DNA of 64,000 bases from a virus. Lineage: Duplodnaviria > Heunggongvirae > Uroviricota > Caudoviricetes. A program made the position numbers and the translations under genes. The stretch is from the IMG/VR virus record IMGVR_UViG_2718218304_000001, positions 32,001-96,000 of that record; one strand, 5' to 3'. The notes below the pieces were generated by a model, which had not been told where the DNA came from, made no database searches, and was given only the letters and a program-made list of their open reading frames with translations. Positions 4,091-55,623 of this stretch are shown here, one piece after another (position 1 is the first letter of the stretch; the number at the start of each line of letters is the position of its first letter).

Positions 4091-4110
4091 TGTGAAGAAT
4101 GGTTGCTTAA

Positions 4111-6144
4111 TTACTTAACCTGGTGGCCAGGTTTAGCACCGACATCCGGGCTTAACAGGAAGATATCTTTCCCGCCAGGGCCAGCAGCCATCACCATGCC
4201 TTCGGAGATACCGAAGCGCATTTTACGCGGAGCCAGGTTAGCCACCATAATGGTGTGACGACCAATCAGTGCCTGTGGGTCTGGATAAGCAGAACGAATG
4301 CCGGAGAAGACATTGCGTTTTTCACCGCCGAGATCCAGCGTCAGGCGTAGCAGTTTGTCAGAACCTTCTACAAACTCTGCGTTTTCAATCAGCGCCACGC
4401 GCAGGTCAACTTTGGCGAAGTCGTCAAAGGTGATAGTTTCCTGAATCGGGTCGTCAGCCAGTGGGCCAGTTACCGGTGCGGCTGTGGCTTTCACTTCTTC
4501 TTTGGATGCTTCCACCAGTGCTTCAACCTGCTTCATATCGATGCGGTTATACAGTGCCTTGAACGGATTCACTTTATGGCCCAGCAGCGGTTGCTGGATA
4601 CCATCCCAGGTCAGTTCTGTATTCAGGAATGCTTCTGCACGTTCAGTCAGTTTCGGCAGTACCGGCTTCAAGTACGTCATCAGCACGCGGAACAGGTTAA
4701 TGCCCATAGAGCAAATCGCCTGCAGATCGGCATCGCGTCCTTCCTGCTTCGCCACCACCCACGGAGCCTGTTCATCGACATAGCGGTTAGCCAGGTCAGC
4801 CAATGCCATGATTTCACGGATAGCTTTACCAAATTCGCGGCTTTCCCATGCTTCACCAATCACTTCAGCAGCATCAGTGAAGGTTTTATACAGTTGCGGG
4901 TCAGCCAGTTCGCCTGCCAGCACACCGTCAAAACGCTTATTGATAAAGCCCGCGTTACGGGACGCCAGGTTAACCACTTTGTTAACGATATCGGCATTCA
5001 CACGCTGAACGAAATCCTCCAGGTTGAGATCGATATCATCAATACGCGAAGAGAGTTTCGCAGTGTAGTAGTAACGCAGGCTGTCAGCGTCAAAATGATT
5101 CAGCCAGGTGCTGGCTTTAATAAAGGTGCCGCGAGACTTGGACATCTTCGCGCCGTTCACCGTCACATAGCCATGAACAAACAGGTTGGTCGGCTTGCGG
5201 AAGTTGCTGCCTTCCAGCATGGCAGGCCAGAACAGGCTGTGGAAGTAAACAATATCTTTACCGATGAAGTGGTACAGCTCGGCGGTGGAGTCTTTCTTCC
5301 AGTATTCATCGAAGCTGGTGGTATCGCCGCGCTTGTCGCACAGATTCTTGAAGGAACCCATGTAGCCAATCGGCGCGTCCAGCCAGACGTAGAAATATTT
5401 GCCCGGCGCGTTCGGAATTTCAAAACCGAAGTAAGGCGCATCGCGGGATATATCCCACTGTTGCAGGCCGGATTCAAACCATTCCTGCATTTTGTTCGCC
5501 ACCTGCTCCTGCAACGCGCCGCTGCGGGTCCATGCCTGCAACATTTCGCTGAAAGAAGGTAGATCAAAGAAGAAGTGTTCGGAATCACGCATTACCGGGG
5601 TAGCGCCAGAAACCACCGATTTCGGCTCGATCAATTCAGTCGGGCTATATGTTGCGCCGCAGACTTCACAGTTATCGCCGTATTGATCTGGCGCTTTACA
5701 TTTCGGGCAGGTGCCTTTTACAAAACGATCCGGCAGGAACATGCCTTTTTCCGGGTCGTACAACTGAGAGATAGTGCGGTTTTTAATAAAACCGTTCTCT
5801 TTCAGGCGAGTATAGATAAGCTCAGACAACTGACGGTTCTCTTCGCTGTGCGTCGAGTGATAGTTGTCATAGCTGATGTTAAAGCCTGCGAAATCAGTCT
5901 GGTGTTCCTGACTCATTTCGCCAATCATCTGCTCCGGTGTGATACCAAGCTGCTGTGCTTTCAGCATGATCGGCGTACCGTGGGCATCGTCGGCACAGAT
6001 GAAATTAACCTCGTGGCCGCGCATTCGCTGGTAACGAACCCAGACATCAGCCTGGATGTGCTCCAGCATATGGCCGAGGTGGATTGAGCCGTTAGCGTAC
6101 GGCAGCGCGCACGTCACCAGAATTTTCTTCGCGACTTGGGTCAT
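4111..6144 (-). CDS. metG: methionyl-tRNA synthetase
   Basis: Translation starting [29 protein letters not shown] matches E. coli MetG over its full 677 aa as I recall it; the ORF-track start at 6273 is an upstream in-frame extension. Confidence 0.95.
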
Positions 6145-6301
6145 AGTAGGCATTACTTCTTTGTAGTGAAAAGGGGCTTGATAGTAACAAAATGGCCTTA
6201 TGTCTGCCATGTGATAACAGCATTTCTCATAAATGATTAAATGTCGTAGCTGGAGTACACTACAAGGCGACAATTGCGCAAATTAAAATAAAGGAGACGG
6301 G

Positions 6302-7402
6302 ATGAGCGAGTCCAAATCGCCGGATGCCCTGAGAGCAATGGTAGCCGGTACGCTGGCTAATTTTCAGCACCCAACCCTGAAACACAACCTGACTACGCTT
6401 AAAGCGTTACACCATGTTGCGTTGATGGATGACACACTGCATGTCGAACTAATCATGCCTTTCGTGTGGAATAAGCCTTTTGAAGACCTGAAAGAGCAAT
6501 GTAGTGGTGATCTGCTCCGTATCACTGGCGCAAAGGCTATTGACTGGAAGCTGTCGTACAACATTGCCACGCTTAAGCGCGTCAAAAACCAACCAGGCAT
6601 TAATGGCGTTAAGAACATTATCGCCGTCAGCTCAGGCAAGGGCGGCGTGGGTAAATCCTCCACGGCGGTAAACCTGGCACTGGCGTTGGCTGCTGAAGGT
6701 GCGAAAGTTGGTATTTTGGATGCCGATATCTATGGTCCATCAATTCCAACCATGCTGGGCGCGGAAAACCAACGTCCAACCTCACCGGACGGTACTCACA
6801 TGGCACCTATCATGTCTCATGGCCTGGCAACCAACTCTATTGGTTATCTGGTCACCGACGACAATGCAATGGTGTGGCGTGGACCGATGGCCAGCAAGGC
6901 GCTGATGCAGATGTTGCAGGAAACTCTATGGCCTGATCTGGACTATCTCGTTCTCGATATGCCGCCGGGCACTGGTGATATTCAGTTGACGCTGGCGCAG
7001 AACATTCCTGTAACTGGTGCGGTTGTGGTAACTACGCCGCAAGACATCGCGCTGATCGATGCGAAGAAAGGCATTGTGATGTTCGAAAAAGTCGAAGTGC
7101 CGGTACTGGGTATCGTCGAAAACATGAGTGTGCATATTTGCAGTAACTGCGGTCATCACGAGCCAATTTTTGGCACCGGTGGCGCACAGAAACTGGCCGA
7201 GAAATACAACACGCAGTTGTTAGGCCAAATGCCACTTCATATCTCTCTTCGTGAAGATCTGGATAACGGAACACCAACCGTTATTAGTCGTCCAGATAGC
7301 GAATTTACGGCTATTTATCGTGACCTCGCAGATCGCGTTGCCGCCCAAATGTATTGGCAAGGTGAAGTAATACCTGGCGAAATCGCATTCCGCGCAGTGT
7401 GA
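6302..7402 (+). CDS. apbC: Fe-S cluster carrier ATPase ApbC/Mrp
   Basis: Contains GKGGVGKS P-loop and CxxC; near-identical to E. coli Mrp/ApbC from memory. Confidence 0.95.
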   Translation: MSESKSPDALRAMVAGTLANFQHPTLKHNLTTLKALHHVALMDDTLHVELIMPFVWNKPFEDLKEQCSGDLLRITGAKAIDWKLSYNIATLKRVKNQPGINGVKNIIAVSSGKGGVGKSSTAVNLALALAAEGAKVGILDADIYGPSIPTMLGAENQRPTSPDGTHMAPIMSHGLATNSIGYLVTDDNAMVWRGPMASKALMQMLQETLWPDLDYLVLDMPPGTGDIQLTLAQNIPVTGAVVVTTPQDIALIDAKKGIVMFEKVEVPVLGIVENMSVHICSNCGHHEPIFGTGGAQKLAEKYNTQLLGQMPLHISLREDLDNGTPTVISRPDSEFTAIYRDLADRVAAQMYWQGEVIPGEIAFRAV

Positions 7403-7404
7403 TA

Positions 7405-7428
7405 AAAGGCGGTGCATTGCACCGCCTA
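7405..7428. terminator. bidirectional terminator hairpin between convergent apbC and the UmuD-like gene
   Basis: Inverted repeat ggcggtgcattgcaccgcc flanked by A/T runs. Confidence 0.5.
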
Positions 7429-7438
7429 ATCAGTTCTC

Positions 7439-7828
7439 CTACATCACGGGACAATCATCAAACTCGCCACTTCTTGCGTCGTTGATAATGTGAGTGATCA
7501 CACCAAACACGGCATTGCTGCCCGTGCATCCATCGTCATCCTTTGGCAATGCTTCCTTCTTACCGGTTCTTAAATCCTCCAGATGCTGACGTGGGTACTT
7601 CCGGTATCTTTTTACGCGATATTCCCCATCCAGAGCGCATACAAGCAGAGAACCATCAACCGGGGTAAGTGAGGAATCGACCACCAGCAATGCACCCTGT
7701 AATATTCCCTCACGATGATGACTATCAGCTGCCCTCATGAAGTAGGTCGCTGAAGGATGTCTAATTATCTGCTGATCAAGAGAAATACGGCTCTCAGCAT
7801 AATCCGCCGCAGGAGAAGGGAAGCCCAT
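7439..7828 (-). CDS. UmuD'-like S24 peptidase domain protein (lacks UmuD N-terminal arm; no umuC partner)
   Basis: MGFPSPAADYAE...HPSATYF...LLVVDS...DGEYRVKR aligns with UmuD from its Cys24-Gly25 cleavage site onward; Ser (ADSH) and Lys (RVKR) of the catalytic dyad are retained. Confidence 0.6.
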   Translation of the reverse strand: MGFPSPAADYAESRISLDQQIIRHPSATYFMRAADSHHREGILQGALLVVDSSLTPVDGSLLVCALDGEYRVKRYRKYPRQHLEDLRTGKKEALPKDDDGCTGSNAVFGVITHIINDARSGEFDDCPVM

Positions 7829-7926
7829 AGCGTTTTCACCTCAGAGTACTGTTTATCCATACAGTATACATTAAAGATGCTTGAAGTGTGCAATAGCGCG
7901 ATGCTTTGCGCTCGTCTGGTGGCGCG

Positions 7927-8178
7927 TTATTTTTTGGCTATATCTTCTTTCTGATATACCGGATCGTTTCCTTTTGGCAGCAGGAGGCTTAACTGCCGGT
8001 AGTGCCGTAGCCGTTCCATGAAATAGGTGCGCAGGTTCTCAGGTTGCTCACGGGCTACCTGTTCCGCTATGACGGGTATGTTCAATCGCTCTTTGTAGGC
8101 AACCCCCCTGGCAGCCAGGTCAACGTTAACTTTATTCCTTTCTTCCTGGCTTTTGGCTGCTATGTTCCAGTTGCTCAT
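7927..8178 (-). CDS. hypothetical protein
   Basis: ORF track only; no recognisable motifs. Confidence 0.2.
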
Positions 8179-8530
8179 GTTTAAGGCTCACATTTCCAGA
8201 TGGTATTCTGAACACCCGTACCAGGCGCAAGATGAGGGTTAGCGTTCGCGCTATGCAGATATACAGCTTTAGACTTTCCGTATTGCTGACAGGCTTTATC
8301 TGCGTTTTTTGGCAGGCTATCCAAGCCAATACCAGCCATCGAACTGGATGCTAACCTTTTCACCGTCATTGTATTGCACCATCGCACACCCAGACATAGC
8401 TAAAATCGCACCGACAATACCGCTTTTCCAAAAAGCTCTAATTAGGTCATTCGTTACCTAATGTCCGAACTGCTAAAGCATCCAAGTTGCTGTAGAATCA
8501 CATCCAATTACTTAAACCTGAAATAAGTGG

Positions 8531-10093
8531 ATGAAAATGACAAGTATTCAACAACGTGCAGAGCTTCATCGCCAGATCTGGCAAATTGCTAACGATGTCA
8601 GGGGTTCAGTCGATGGATGGGATTTTAAGCAGTACGTTTTGGGCGCGCTTTTTTACCGTTTTATCAGCGAAAATTTTTCCAGTTATATTGAAGCCGGTGA
8701 TGACAGTATCTGTTATGCGAAACTGGATGACAGCGTAATTACTGATGACATTAAAGACGATGCCATCAAAACTAAAGGCTACTTCATCTACCCCAGTCAG
8801 CTTTTCTGCAACGTAGCTGCGAAAGCAAATACTAATGACAGACTGAATGCAGATTTAAACAGCATCTTCGTTGCTATCGAAAGTTCTGCTTACGGTTATC
8901 CTTCAGAAGCTGACATCAAAGGTTTGTTTGCTGATTTCGATACCACCAGTAACCGCCTGGGTAACACCGTTAAAGATAAAAATGCCCGCTTGGCTGCGGT
9001 TCTGAAAGGGGTTGAAGGGCTAAAACTTGGTGACTTCCATGAACATCAGATTGACCTGTTCGGTGACGCCTATGAGTTCCTGATTTCTAACTATGCGGCG
9101 AATGCCGGTAAGTCCGGCGGCGAGTTCTTTACACCGCAGCACGTCTCTAAGCTGATTGCACAACTGGCTATGCACGGGCAGACCCACGTTAACAAAATCT
9201 ACGACCCGGCAGCAGGCTCCGGTTCGCTGTTGTTGCAGGCGAAAAAACAGTTTGATGACCATATCATCGAAGAAGGTTTTTTTGGTCAGGAAATCAACCA
9301 TACGACCTATAACCTGGCGCGTATGAACATGTTTTTGCACAACATCAACTACGACAAGTTTGATATCAAGCTGGGTAATACACTGACTGAGCCGCACTTC
9401 AGAGATGAAAAACCGTTTGATGCCATCGTTTCTAACCCGCCGTATTCGGTGAAATGGATTGGCAGCGATGACCCGACGCTGATTAACGATGAACGTTTTG
9501 CCCCGGCTGGCGTTCTGGCCCCCAAATCCAAAGCTGACTTTGCGTTTGTATTACATGCGCTGAACTATCTTTCGGCCAAAGGTCGCGCTGCGATTGTCTG
9601 CTTCCCAGGCATTTTTTACCGTGGCGGCGCGGAGCAGAAAATCCGTCAGTATCTGGTCGACAATAACTATGTCGAAACCGTGATTTCACTGGCACCGAAT
9701 CTGTTCTTTGGCACCACTATTGCCGTCAATATTCTGGTGCTGTCTAAACATAAAACGGATACCAAAGTTCAGTTTATTGATGCCAGCGAACTGTTCAAAA
9801 AAGAGACTAACAACAACATTCTGACCGATGCTCATATCGAACAGATTATGCAGGTATTTGCCAGCAAGGAAGATGTTGCTCATCTGGCGAAATCTGTTGC
9901 GTTTGAGACTGTTGTCGCGAATGACTATAACCTGTCGGTGAGCAGCTATGTGGAAGCGAAAGATACTCGCGAAATTATCGATATCGCTGAGCTGAATGCT
10001 GAGCTGAAAACCACGGTCAGCAAAATCGACCAGTTGCGTAAAGATATTGATGCGATTGTTGCTGAGATTGAAGGTAGCGAGGTACAGGCATGA
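8531..10093 (+). CDS. hsdM: type I restriction-modification methyltransferase subunit HsdM (type IC, EcoR124I-like)
   Basis: NPPY motif ([10 protein letters not shown]) and AdoMet-binding DPAAGSGS; sequence matches my recollection of EcoR124I HsdM. Confidence 0.9.
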
Positions 10094-11337
10094 GCGAGCT
10101 GAGTTATCTGGAAAAACTGCTGGATGGGGCTGAGGTTGAGTGGGTAGCATTAAATAAATTAGCAACTTTTTTAAAAGGGAAGTCTTTACCTAAAGAAAAA
10201 ATAACTCCAGATGGCAATAGATATTGTATTCATTACGGTGAGCTTTTCACTCATTATGGTCCCATAATTGACAAAGTATGCTCAAAAACAAACCAAGCAA
10301 TCAATGAGTCAATTCTATCTGAAAAAAATGATGTTCTAATGCCAACGTCAGACGTTACACCAAGAGGTTTGGCTACAGCTAGTTGCATTCAAGAAAGTGG
10401 CGTTATTTTAGGCGGCGATATTTTGATTATTAGATGCTCTGGTGTTGATGGTAGATATCTAAGTAATTTCATAATAAATAACAAAAAAAAGATATTGCAA
10501 ATGGTTAAAGGTTCTACTGTTTATCATTTGTATGCTAAAGATATAGGTAAATTACTTATCCCCATCCCTTGCCCCAACAACCCGGAAAAGTCGCTGGCTA
10601 TCCAGTCTGAAATCGTCAGGATTCTGGATAAATTTACTGCACTTACCGCTGAGCTTACCGCTGAGCTTAGCATGCGTAAAAAACAATACAACTACTATCG
10701 CGACCAGTTGTTGAGTTTTAAAGAGGGTGAGGTTGAGTGGAAAGCTTTGGGGGAAATTGGTGAAGTTCGTATGTGTAAACGAATCCTAAAATCACAAACA
10801 TCTTCTGAGGGAGAGATTCCATTTTATAAAATTGGGACATTTGGTAAGGAACCCGATTCCTATATATCTAGAAAACTATTTAATGAATTTAAAGAAAAAT
10901 ATAGTTATCCTAAAGTTGGCGAAGTATTGATTTCTGCCAGTGGGACCATCGGCAGGACTGTTATATTTGATGGTAGGGAATCATATTTCCAGGATAGCAA
11001 TATTGTCTGGATTGAAAATAATGAAAAAATAGTTTTAAATAAATATTTATTCTATTTCTATAAAATAGCAAAATGGGGAATATCTGAAGGTGGAACTATT
11101 AAAAGACTTTATAATGATAACTTAAGAAAACTTATGATACCAGTACCATTTCCTGATTCTCCTGAAAGATCGCTAGTTGAACAACAAAAAATAGTGAAAT
11201 TACTGGATAAATTTGATGCTTTGACCAATTCCATCACCGAAGGTCTTCCGCGTGAAATCGAGTTGCGCCAGAAACAATACGAGTACTATCGTGATTTACT
11301 GTTCAGTTTTCCCAAACCTGAAACTATCAGTAACTAA
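10090..11337 (+). CDS. hsdS: type I R-M specificity subunit HsdS (type IC)
   Basis: ATGA start/stop overlap with hsdM; two AT-rich target-recognition domains around a conserved central region with a TAELTAEL repeat. Confidence 0.85.
10642..10668 (+). repeat. 12-bp tandem repeat x2 (CTTACCGCTGAG) in the hsdS central region, encoding TAEL-TAEL
   Basis: Read directly; this repeat number is known in the EcoR124I/II family to set the spacer length of the recognition site. Confidence 0.8.
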
Positions 11338-11458
11338 TTGACCATTGCTACCGACCGGATCACCTTAACATCCGGTCTATATAGAGACTATTTTTTACAC
11401 GCCGGAAGTCGCCCTTAAAGCCCTTCCGGCCCTTGCCAGACGGCACAAAGGATGCGCT

Positions 11459-14400
11459 ATGACTCATCAGACACACACCATTGCTGAATCCAATAACTTT
11501 ATCGTTCTTGATAAGTACATCAAAGCCGAGCAAACAGGCGACAGCTACCAGAGCGAATCGGACCTGGAACGTGAACTGATTCAGGATCTGCGGAATCAGG
11601 GCTATGAATTTATTTCCGTAAAATCTCAGTCGGCGATGCTGGCCAACGTTCGGGAACAGCTTCAGAACCTCAATGGTGTGGTGTTTAATGACAGCGAATG
11701 GCGGCGTTTCACGGAGCAGTATCTGGATAACCCGAGCGATGGCATCCTGGATAAGACCCGTAAAATCCATATCGACTATATTTGCGACTTTATTTTTGAT
11801 GACGAGCGTCTTGAGAACATCTATTTGATAGATAAAAAGAATCTCATGCGCAACAAGGTGCAGATTATCCAGCAGTTTGAACAGACGGGTTCTCATGCTA
11901 ACCGTTATGACGTCACGATCCTGGTTAATGGCTTACCGCTGGTACAAATCGAACTGAAAAAGCGCGGCGTGGCGATTCGTGAGGCCTTTAACCAGATACA
12001 TCGTTACAGCAAAGAGAGTTTTAACAGCGAAAATTCTCTGTTTAAGTATCTGCAACTGTTTGTCATTTCCAACGGCACCGATACCCGTTACTTTGCCAAC
12101 ACGACAAAGCGCGATAAAAACAGTTTTGACTTCACCATGAATTGGGCGAAATCAGACAACACGCTGATTAAAGACCTCAAAGACTTTACCGCCACCTTTT
12201 TCCAGAAACATACCCTGCTTAATGTCTTAGTGAACTACAGCGTATTCGATGTTAGCCAAACGCTACTGGTGATGCGACCGTACCAGATTGCCGCCACTGA
12301 GCGCATTCTGTGGAAAATTAAGAGTTCCTTTACAGCGAAGAACTGGTCAAAACCGGAAAGCGGTGGGTATATCTGGCACACTACCGGTTCAGGTAAAACC
12401 CTCACCAGCTTTAAAGCCGCGCGTCTGGCAACAGAGCTGGACTTTATTGATAAAGTCTTCTTCGTGGTCGACAGGAAAGACCTCGATTACCAGACCATGA
12501 ATGAATATAAGCGTTTTTCGCCAGACAGCGTCAACGGCTCGGAAAATACCGCAGGTCTTAAACGCAATCTGGATAAGGACGATAACAAAATTATCGTCAC
12601 CACTATTCAGAAACTTAATAACCTGATGAAAGCAGAAAGCGACCTGCCTGTATACAATCAGCAAGTGGTGTTTATATTTGATGAATGTCACCGCAGCCAG
12701 TTTGGAGAAGCGCAGAAAAACCTGAAGAAGAAATTCAAACGCTATTATCAGTTTGGTTTTACCGGCACACCTATTTTCCCGGAAAACGCCTTAGGCTCAG
12801 AAACGACCGCCAGCGTATTTGGTCGTGAATTGCATTCGTATGTAATTACCGATGCGATTCGTGATGAAAAAGTGCTCAAATTCAAGGTGGACTACAACGA
12901 TGTGCGGCCACAGTTTAAATCTTTAGAGACAGAAACCGACGAGAAAAAACTGAGTGCGGCTGAAAATCAGCAGGCATTTCTTCATCCCATGCGTATACAG
13001 GAAATTACGCAATATATTCTGAATAACTTCCGCCAGAAGACCCACCGTACTTTCCCAGGTTCCAAAGGCTTTAATGCCATGCTGGCAGTGAGTAGCGTGG
13101 ATGCCGCGAAAGCCTATTACGCGACGTTTAAACGGTTACAAGAGGAAGCAGCTAATAAATCGGCTACCTATAAACCGCTGCGTGTTGCAACAATCTTCTC
13201 CTTTGCCGCCAATGAAGAACAAAATGCCATTGGTGAAATTTCCGATGAAACTTTTGATACCAGCGCAATGGACAGCAGTGCTAAAGAGTTTCTTGACGCT
13301 GCAATTCGTGAGTATAACAGCTATTTTAAAACTAACTTCAGCACCGACAGTAACGGTTTTCAGAACTACTATCGTGATTTAGCCCAACGGGTTAAAAATC
13401 AGGATATCGATCTGTTAATTGTCGTTGGGATGTTTTTAACCGGCTTCGACGCTCCAACATTGAACACGCTATTCGTCGATAAAAACTTGCGTTTTCACGG
13501 CCTGATGCAGGCATTCTCCCGTACCAACCGCATTTATGACGCTACTAAAACCTTCGGTAACATCGTCACTTTTCGGGATCTGGAACGCTCAACCATTGAT
13601 GCCATAACGCTGTTTGGTGATAAAAATACTAAAAATGTGGTGTTAGAAAAGAGTTATGCTGAGTATATGGAAGGCTTTACAGATGCTGCCACTGGTGAAG
13701 CTAAACGCGGCTTTATGGCAGTAGTTTCAGAACTGGAACAACGGTTCCCTGACCCTGCCAGTATTGAAAGTGAAAAAGAGAAGAAAGACTTCGTAAAACT
13801 GTTTGGTGAATACCTGCGTGCCGAGAACATCCTGCAAAACTATGATGAATTTGCCACGCTGAAAGCCCTGCAACAAATCGATCTTAGCGATCCTGTTGCG
13901 GTAGAAAAATTCAAAGCAGAACATTATGTGGATGATGAAAAGTTCGCTGAATTGCAAACAATTCGTCTCCCTGCTGAACGCAAGATTCAGGATTATCGTT
14001 CTGCCTATAACGATATTCGCGACTGGCAGCGCCGTGAGAAAGAAGCTGAGAAAAAAGAGAAATCAACCACTGACTGGGATGACGTAGTTTTTGAGGTCGA
14101 TTTGCTGAAGTCTCAGGAAATAAACCTGGATTATATCCTTGGACTGATTTTCGAACACAACAGACAAAATAAAGGCAAGGGCGAAATGATCGAAGAGGTC
14201 AAACGCTTAATTCGTTCAAGCCTGGGGAACCGGGCGAAAGAGGGCCTGGTGGTCGATTTTATTCAGCAAACGAACCTGGATGATTTACCAGACAAAGCCA
14301 GTATCATTGAGGCATTCTTTACGTTTGCTCAACGCGAACAGCAACGTGAAGCAGAAGCATTGATAAAAGAAGAAAATCTCAATGAAGAGGCGGCGAAACG

Positions 14401-14575
14401 CTATATTCGCACGTCTTTAAAACGCGAATACGCCACCGAAAATGGCACAGAATTAAACGAGACATTACCAAAACTTAGTCCGTTAAACCCGCAATATAAA
14501 ACGAAAAAACAGACCGTTTTCCAGAAAATCGTCACGTTTATTGAAAAGTTCAAAGGAGTAGGTGGGCAGATATAG
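11459..14575 (+). CDS. hsdR: type I R-M restriction subunit HsdR (helicase-nuclease)
   Basis: 1038 aa; Walker A TGSGKT and DECH box; only a 120-nt gap after hsdS. Confidence 0.9.
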
Positions 14576-54040: not shown

Positions 54041-54427
54041 ATGTCTGATAACAAGATTGAATTTATAGAAAGTCGCTACGCTGCTTTTATCGCAGGGTTG
54101 ATTGAATCCTCACCTATGAGTCAGGCCCAAATAGCCAGACTTATTGGTTATAAAAATGCCAACAACCTTTCTTTAATTAAAAGTGGCAAAATTCCTTTGC
54201 CTATCGATAAGGTTCGTCCGTTGGCGCTGGCGCTGGGTATTGAGCCAAGTCGTCTTATGATGATGGTGCTGGAAGAACGCCAACCTGAACTCGCAGCATT
54301 TTTATACAAAGAAGGCACCGCTCCTCTTAACGAGGACGAAAAACAGGTTCTTGCTGCATATAACGAGCGATTCGGTAAAGAGAAAGGCGCATCACAAAAG
54401 GTTGTTGAGGCCATAAAGTCTCTATGA
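54041..54427 (+). CDS. helix-turn-helix (XRE-like) DNA-binding regulator
   Basis: MSQAQIARLIGYKNANNLSLIKSGK is HTH-like; convergent with the recombinase gene. Confidence 0.5.
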   Translation: MSDNKIEFIESRYAAFIAGLIESSPMSQAQIARLIGYKNANNLSLIKSGKIPLPIDKVRPLALALGIEPSRLMMMVLEERQPELAAFLYKEGTAPLNEDEKQVLAAYNERFGKEKGASQKVVEAIKSL

Positions 54428-55525
54428 AAAATTTACACGAATAAGCTCTGTTGATAGACGATCTCCCTTGAATTTGTGGTCAATTTCGTCTAAATCCGGT
54501 TGCTCTACGATTGATGCGATGTACGTCGAGAAACTTTCTAAGGCGTCTCGCATCTCGTCCATATAATCGTGCCGGTCGTAGACTCGATCTATCCCCTCAA
54601 GACTGTGGTTCATGATTTTGCGTGATACCTCCTGGCTTATGCCTAATGCTGGGAAGTAACTACGCGCAGTACGGCGCAAGTCTCGGGGTGTAAATGGCTC
54701 AAGCTCCATCAGTTCTGGTCGTTCCAGAATACGACGTAATGCCTGGGCTATTGCCACTTTAGACATAGGAAGGTCTTTCCCGATTTTTTTATTCGAAGGC
54801 ACGAGCCACTGGCTGTCTTTACCATATTCGAACAACTCTTCAATACAAGTGCGCATTAATGAGCTTAAAGGCAGAGAATGCTCACGGGCAGATTTGTTCC
54901 TCTTGCCTTGATTCCAAACCCCACGCTTAAGATTGAACTCACTTTTTTTAGCCCGCAGTACTTCGTCAGGTCGTCTTGCGGATACAAGACATAGCCTGGC
55001 AGCCCATTTTGTACCAGCACACACATTGAAGTAGTCCCATATATTCCAGAACACCCATACCTCTGCGTCGGTCAGCTTCCGCTCGCGAGGTGTGGGCTTT
55101 GCGCCACCGGCAACTTTGTTAAGTGACATATCGTTTAACGGTGACACGTCTATCATCCCCTGGAAGGCGCACCAGCTAAGGAACTGCTTCATCAGAGAGA
55201 AAACGCGGCGGCCCATAACAATTTTGCCATCCAGTATTAGTGGGTTGACCAGTTGGTTCACCATGAACCTATTAATGTCACTTACTTTTACATCGGCAAT
55301 GTGCGGCAAAACATGTATCAAAATACAATGAACAGCGATCTCTGGCCGACGTCTGGTTATCAGCAGAGATAAGCGAGTGAATAACATGAATGCGTCCGAG
55401 AATCTCATGTCATTGCTAACCTGCGAGATCATAACGGCCTGCATTTGAGATGCTCTTTCGAGATACTCTATCGCCTCTTTTGAGGTGTTCTCCGCAGCGC
55501 GTGCTCTGTCAAAGCTATTTTTCAT
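54422..55525 (-). CDS. tyrosine site-specific recombinase (integrase or resolvase)
   Basis: C-terminal catalytic region with RDLRRTA...MNHS...RVYDRHDY (R..H..R..Y). Confidence 0.8.
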   Translation of the reverse strand: MKNSFDRARAAENTSKEAIEYLERASQMQAVMISQVSNDMRFSDAFMLFTRLSLLITRRRPEIAVHCILIHVLPHIADVKVSDINRFMVNQLVNPLILDGKIVMGRRVFSLMKQFLSWCAFQGMIDVSPLNDMSLNKVAGGAKPTPRERKLTDAEVWVFWNIWDYFNVCAGTKWAARLCLVSARRPDEVLRAKKSEFNLKRGVWNQGKRNKSAREHSLPLSSLMRTCIEELFEYGKDSQWLVPSNKKIGKDLPMSKVAIAQALRRILERPELMELEPFTPRDLRRTARSYFPALGISQEVSRKIMNHSLEGIDRVYDRHDYMDEMRDALESFSTYIASIVEQPDLDEIDHKFKGDRLSTELIRVNFS

Positions 55526-55623
55526 ATGACAATCACCGAGTTACGCCGATGTACTGTATAAGTAAACAGTATATTAGGCATAGATTCTTATAGGATCAAG
55601 AGTAAAAGTAACTCATTTTTACT

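Follow-up and report, generated by a model that had tools for sequence, protein, structure and literature searches.

The 64,000-nucleotide stretch of viral DNA analysed here (hereafter, the window) carries on its minus strand an open reading frame (ORF) of 129 aa plus stop, whose product, MGFPSPAADYAESRISLDQQIIRHPSATYFMRAADSHHREGILQGALLVVDSSLTPVDGSLLVCALDGEYRVKRYRKYPRQHLEDLRTGKKEALPKDDDGCTGSNAVFGVITHIINDARSGEFDDCPVM, starts with MGFPSPAADY. The first-pass annotation regarded this ORF as an orphan, pre-activated UmuD′-like peptidase gene with no umuC beside it. The locus raises the question of whether this is a genuine gene, to which family it belongs and with which partner its product would act.

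In an alignment with UmuD of Escherichia coli K-12 (NC_000913), Gly2 of the encoded protein falls on Gly25, the first residue of UmuD′ and the one located directly C-terminal to the Cys24-Gly25 cleavage bond. The proposal that the ORF begins at the UmuD self-cleavage point was, thus, borne out. We also looked for a longer upstream start that restores a full UmuD. The in-frame translation 5′ of the ATG reads FKHL-stop-CILYG-stop-TVL-stop-GENA-M, with three stops in at most 15 codons, and therefore a longer protein is impossible. The same M-GFPSPA start is present in 105 of the 120 closest database homologs. Several database entries of this family are 148–167 aa long and have GFPSPA at an offset of 20–34; their upstream starts look mis-called. 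Comparison with the humD gene of phage P1 gave a dN/dS ratio of 0.052 at a dS of 0.80, which indicates strong purifying selection. This ratio, the full-length match to the HumD family model (residues 1–129 of 129), the Shine-Dalgarno sequence, the LexA box and the terminator led us to conclude that this is a real gene and not a chance ORF.

Alignment to the UmuD, LexA and S24 families, which the first-pass annotation had suggested as a check, gave a clear assignment. The protein scored 219.8 bits with the NCBIfam equivalog NF051876, 'HumD family translesion DNA polymerase' (cutoff 120), and 37.9 bits with Pfam Peptidase_S24 (PF00717; gathering score 23.3), and it matched PHROG 811, 'UmuD-like'. 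The canonical UmuD model (NCBIfam NF007621, PRK10276) gave 87 bits, under its cutoff of 110. The score with the LexA model TIGR00498 was 27.2 bits against a cutoff of 110.95, and the C-terminal domain region alone was matched. In the databases, the names 'LexA family transcriptional regulator' or 'DNA polymerase V' are attached to many members of the HumD family, which have no DNA-binding domain; the LexA-type names are misnomers, as follows from the failure of the LexA model.

Sequence comparisons pointed to the same family. The product is 91% identical to P1 HumD (YP_006569.1) without gaps, both being of 129 aa (85.6% identity at the nucleotide level), and 44% identical to K-12 UmuD. In tblastn searches its identity was 100% with a protein of Escherichia phage Cyrano, 99% with one of phage CMS-2020a and 91–93% with the homologs of P1, RCS47, SJ46 and D6. 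The more divergent members of the family, N15 gp26 and phiKO2 gp23 (68–71%) and the UmuD-like proteins of lambdoid phages such as HK140 and HK639 (60–66%), are likewise all encoded by temperate phages or phage-plasmids. A PDB sequence search returned UmuD′ (1UMU, E 6.7e-23). An AlphaFold model built from an alignment of 97 close homologs had a low-confidence pLDDT of 60.7 and serves for fold assignment; with it, Foldseek retrieved UmuD/UmuD′ first and then the C-terminal domains of LexA. Taken together, the sequence and fold matches to UmuD/UmuD′ structures comprised 1UMU, 1AY9, 1I4V and 8GMT.

The ORF is, therefore, humD, which encodes the form of UmuD′ found on phages and phage-plasmids, and RefSeq already gives the name 'HumD family translesion DNA polymerase' (WP_000506720.1) to the product of identical DNA in the plasmid pMB5646_2. 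An orphan, pre-truncated UmuD′ is the defining description of this known family, so that the core of the first-pass reading is supported and is nothing new. The first description of humD, from phage P1, dates from 1999 (McLenigan et al., as cited in PMC7092418), and P1 HumD is described as an already activated, shorter UmuD (PMC7092418). According to the RefSeq note in the P1 record, the protein 'functionally complements E. coli UmuD′'.

Next, we considered the replicon on which the gene resides. Positions 7300–8530 of the window are 100% identical to many E. coli plasmids of ∼110 kb, and the window as a whole matches one of these, pMB5646_2 (complete, 109.6 kb), mostly at 97–99.5% identity, falling to 84% in a single 1.4-kb segment at one end. 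This plasmid carries RepB, ParB, capsid, portal, terminase and tail genes, its own dnaE, nrdAB, tRNAs, a 3′-5′ exonuclease and hot, as well as dfrA51, metG and apbC; dfrA51 has been described as the marker of the SSU5 phage-plasmid (PMC12217456). The window thus belongs in its entirety to an SSU5-like phage-plasmid with a size of about 110 kb. A preprint surveying SSU5-type phage-plasmids does not mention humD, LexA or metG.

This result does not agree with the placement of the gene at an element junction in the first-pass annotation. At 4110–7398, metG and apbC (mrp) diverge from each other as they do in the E. coli chromosome. Over 3298 bp, this block shares 88.5% identity with the metG-mrp locus of K-12, the homology ending at the apbC stop codon. 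Being located on a phage-plasmid, it is a captured, chromosomal-type cargo, and a chromosomal island junction is ruled out. The gene immediately 5′ of humD, also on the minus strand, is hot. Its product is homologous to the theta subunit of Pol III (Pfam DNA_pol3_theta, E 2e-31; NCBIfam PRK10969; phrog_1105), and the gene has 89.9% nucleotide identity to P1 hot. The P1 homology of the region is limited to 7440–7877 and 7942–8169. A 68-aa ORF directly upstream of hot (8181–8387, minus strand) matches phrog_7757, of unknown function (E 2e-31), and is unannotated in the RefSeq plasmid. The genes hsdM, hsdS and hsdR of a complete type I restriction-modification system occupy 8531–14575, divergent from hot-humD; in the P1 record, plasmid hsd loci (EcoDXXI, R124) are noted as flanked by P1-like sequence around the same variable region. 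The first-pass annotation mentioned neither the minus-strand orientation nor the LexA box, nor the neighbouring hot gene.

The signals around humD are collected in Table 1. Perfect TACTGT-N8-ACAGTA sites occur twice in the 64-kb window against 0.07 expected, and the one at humD agrees with the LexA consensus at 17 of 20 positions and aligns with the annotated LexA site 5′ of P1 humD. From these sequence matches, humD is predicted to be LexA-regulated through an SOS box in its promoter. Promoter-like sites of the TGCACA-18-TATACT type are found once in 1.3 kb, not above the frequency in shuffled sequences, so that the argument for this promoter is where it lies with respect to the LexA box. The hairpin downstream of humD, at 7407–7427 without the U-tract, has a predicted stability of −20.3 kcal/mol (z −4.5), which none of 200 shuffled sequences equalled. 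It does follow apbC, as the first-pass annotation stated in calling it the apbC terminator; the U-tract is, however, found on the minus strand only (UUUUA after the hairpin on the humD strand, UAAUCAG on the apbC strand), which makes it at least as much the terminator of humD. A minus-strand hairpin between hot and humD was no more stable than shuffled sequences, and a hot-humD read-through transcript may be formed. The second perfect LexA box, TACTGTATAAGTAAACAGTA (55552–55571), lies ∼26 nt before the ATG of an ORF for a 367-aa protein (54422..55525, minus strand), annotated in the plasmid as a tyrosine-type recombinase, and overlaps a −10-like hexamer, TAATAT. Its position suggests that this phage-plasmid recombinase is also SOS-controlled.

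Table 1. Features of the humD locus (window coordinates)
Feature	Position	Strand	Remark
humD CDS	7439..7828	minus	pre-truncated UmuD′ homolog; from ORF, NF051876, Peptidase_S24 and identity to P1 HumD
Shine-Dalgarno GAGGTG	7837..7842	minus	8 nt before humD ATG; read from sequence; conserved with P1
LexA (SOS) box TACTGTATGGATAAACAGTA	7847..7866	minus	TACTGT-N8-ACAGTA, perfect; overlaps humD −10
Sigma-70-like promoter TGCACA-18-TATACT	7863..7892	minus	consensus match; −10 overlaps LexA box
Intrinsic-terminator hairpin	7403..7427	minus	9-bp G+C-rich stem, then UUUUA; tail-to-tail, shared with convergent apbC
hot, Pol III theta homolog	7927..8178	minus	directly upstream of humD
Ser36 codon	7721..7723	minus	equivalent to UmuD Ser60, nucleophile position, within ADSH
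Lys73 codon	7610..7612	minus	equivalent to UmuD Lys97, general-base position
HumD-specific C-terminal tail NDARSGEFDDCPVM	7442..7483	minus	absent from UmuD

We then searched for a partner polymerase. With K-12 UmuC as a tblastn query, no match was obtained in the window, and on the complete pMB5646_2 the search gave a 44-aa chance match (E 0.72) and nothing else; the annotation of this plasmid lists no Y-family polymerase. A umuC gene elsewhere in the window or the replicon is thus ruled out, and the absence of umuC claimed in the first-pass annotation holds for the full replicon too. Among 39 related loci of other genomes, ∼28 belong to the HumD family at an identity of at least 50%, and none of these has UmuC within 8 kb on either side. 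UmuC neighbours two distant umuD-like loci, one from Chitinophagaceae and one from Pseudomonas. The former (8001–9595 of locus L035, a metagenome-assembled genome) encodes a 117-aa UmuD homolog that starts with MGFPSPAADY and has a stop three codons upstream, and is thus pre-truncated. It differs from HumD in that a UmuC homolog, 41% identical over 418 aa, comes immediately after it and in that it has no acidic tail. In complete E. coli genomes, umuC is present in 5423 of 5426, and humD-like DNA in 770 of 5426, mostly on phage-plasmids (698 of 811 places are on plasmids). The lack of UmuC on the element and its near-universal presence in E. coli point to host UmuC as the partner of HumD.

The closest known system is that of P1, which shares with the window the protein length, the start at the equivalent of UmuD Gly25, the ADSH motif, the C-terminal tail, a LexA box at the equivalent place, an upstream hot gene and the lack of umuC. 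The differences are in the surroundings: the P1 order is hot-lxr-humD, and lxr is missing between hot and humD in the window; phd-doc lies downstream of humD in P1 and convergent apbC in the window; and the replicon is P1-like in one case and SSU5-like in the other. The homology with E. coli UmuD′ (UmuD residues 25–139) extends over residues 2–118 and includes the Ser/Lys positions and an N-terminus that corresponds to the cleavage product. HumD is, however, made directly, whereas UmuD′ is produced by RecA*-assisted autocleavage, and HumD has ADSH in place of GDSM, an extra loop (residues ∼98–103) and a 10-residue acidic C-terminal tail, and is encoded outside any umuC operon. MucA, RumA, ImpA and SamA are also S24-family accessory subunits of Pol V-type polymerases of mobile elements (PMC7092418); these are full-length, cleavage-dependent and have their own UmuC-type polymerase (mucB, rumB etc.), neither of which applies to HumD.

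The catalytic dyad is present in the window protein, Ser36 and Lys73 aligning with UmuD Ser60 and Lys97, and GDSM is changed to ADSH as in P1 HumD, in agreement with the first-pass annotation. The self-cleavage Ala/Cys-Gly site N-terminal to the core is absent, and since HumD begins one residue past this site it cannot be an autocleaving member of the family. In 122 close homologs the column equivalent to Ser60 contains S in 77, T in 43 and A in 2, and that equivalent to Lys97 contains K in 119; in contrast to the Ser of the window protein, the nucleophile position is often Thr in the wider set, and in more distant genomic members it is T, M or P, with R or M at the Lys position. The family as a whole thus does not keep the dyad, and pseudo-peptidase is the most fitting description of HumD. 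The 'peptidase' label of the first-pass annotation is justified for the S24 ancestry; as to activity, these alignments make it doubtful, and the retained Ser36 and Lys73 are probably vestigial. Four loci from Pantoea, Dryocola and Kosakonia (L039, L041, L042 and L043) encode orphan proteins of 105–125 aa with the MGFPSPAADY N-terminus that are otherwise 26–34% identical to HumD. The Ser motif region is wholly missing in L039, L042 and L043, and in L041 it is divergent and has no Ser; no UmuC was found within 8 kb of any of the four.

The C-terminal tail, NDARxxEFDDxPV(M/I), is kept down to ∼50% identity and is always the C-terminal end of the protein. Among representatives of 50%-identity clusters it was found only in pre-truncated proteins. 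The roughly 60 canonical UmuD proteins, which have the N-terminal arm, all lack it, and no UmuC-linked homolog has an acidic tail of this type. In the structural model the pLDDT of the tail is <50, and the model gives nothing reliable on it. [quoted passage not shown] Literature searches on SSB C-terminal mimics in phages and on UmuD returned nothing on the HumD tail. The confinement of the tail to pre-truncated, umuC-less homologs and its outlasting of the catalytic Ser and Lys form the argument that HumD is a pseudo-peptidase in which [DE]-F-D-D-x-P-V-[MI]-COOH (residues 122–129) mimics the SSB tip DFDDDIPF, a proposal drawn from motif conservation that we rate as rather improbable.

We consider it likely that SOS-induced HumD dimers join host UmuC in a Pol V-like polymerase and so bypass the RecA-dependent cleavage of UmuD. 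The identity of the gene, its pre-truncated start, the lack of UmuC on the element, the SOS box, the purifying selection and the near-universal host umuC form the basis of this mechanism. In an unstressed lysogen, host LexA bound at the box overlapping the −10 element would keep humD off. Upon DNA damage LexA would be cleaved, and transcription of humD would start at its own promoter. HumD, of 129 aa, would then dimerise like UmuD′ and bind chromosomal UmuC, and the resulting translesion polymerase, HumD2-UmuC, would skip the slow RecA*-mediated conversion of UmuD to UmuD′, which is the normal delay step of Pol V. Dimerisation, binding to UmuC and to the RecA filament, and complementation of UmuD′ are inferred here by analogy with the 91% identical P1 HumD. 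Against a simple substitute model, the conserved tail and the decay of the dyad show that the HumD family has diverged functionally from UmuD′. Native P1 HumD is reportedly poorly expressed, and it is reported to have complemented well only from a high-copy plasmid, so that a physiological role in lysogens is a putative one.

In an alternative view, HumD would not chiefly serve as a Pol V subunit; its main task would be to modulate host SOS and replication proteins or to act as a decoy for them. Its acidic tail would bind RecA*, the alpha, epsilon or beta subunits of Pol III, DinB or the partners of SSB, and the protein would tune recombination, a checkpoint or prophage induction to the benefit of the element. 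The gene is an orphan in every HumD-family locus examined, the tail is more conserved than the dyad and confined to pre-truncated homologs, it looks like the SSB tip, and umuD gene products bind Pol III alpha and beta and DinB, as indicated in PMC3384344, PMC3799427 and PMC3901139. However, P1 HumD does complement UmuD′ in mutagenesis (P1 record; PMC7092418), the likeness to SSB spans eight residues, and modulator and Pol V roles are compatible with each other; we hold this alternative to be unlikely. We regard as very unlikely that HumD acts with the DnaE, Hot and 3′-5′ exonuclease of the element instead of host UmuC, for example by loosening the proofreading of the element's replisome during SOS. 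The element does encode all three, and hot and humD are neighbours both here and in P1, but P1, N15, phiKO2 and the lambdoid phages have humD without a dnaE of their own, a Hot homolog is found at just two other humD loci (∼3.5 kb from a full-length humD in L027 and beside a humD fragment in L034), and humD has its own predicted LexA-controlled promoter, with no evidence of co-transcription.

HumD might also be an active S24 peptidase working in trans in a heterodimer, for instance on host UmuD or a LexA-like substrate. UmuD cleavage can be intermolecular, and both Ser36 and Lys73 are kept in the window allele and in P1. The replacement of Ser by T in 43 of the 122 close homologs and by M or P further out, that of Lys by R or M, and the ADSH context argue that catalysis is not under family-wide selection, and we judge this role extremely unlikely. 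The missing N-terminal 24 residues and the lack of a umuC neighbour could suggest that humD is a functionless, decaying 5′-truncated remnant of umuDC. The dN/dS ratio, the start shared by most of the homologs, the conserved Shine-Dalgarno sequence, LexA box and terminator, and the wide occurrence of humD on intact phages already refute this, and its probability is next to nil.

Only two observations may be new: across the family the dyad decays, whereas an acidic tail that resembles the SSB tip is conserved. Were SSB-tip mimicry true, the phage UmuD′ could dock on SSB-partner proteins or on the SSB-binding surface of UmuC, and mobile elements would recruit or hijack translesion synthesis in a way unavailable to the host UmuD′. 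A LexA-controlled, pre-activated Pol V subunit carried on phage-plasmids could raise SOS mutagenesis in clinical strains.
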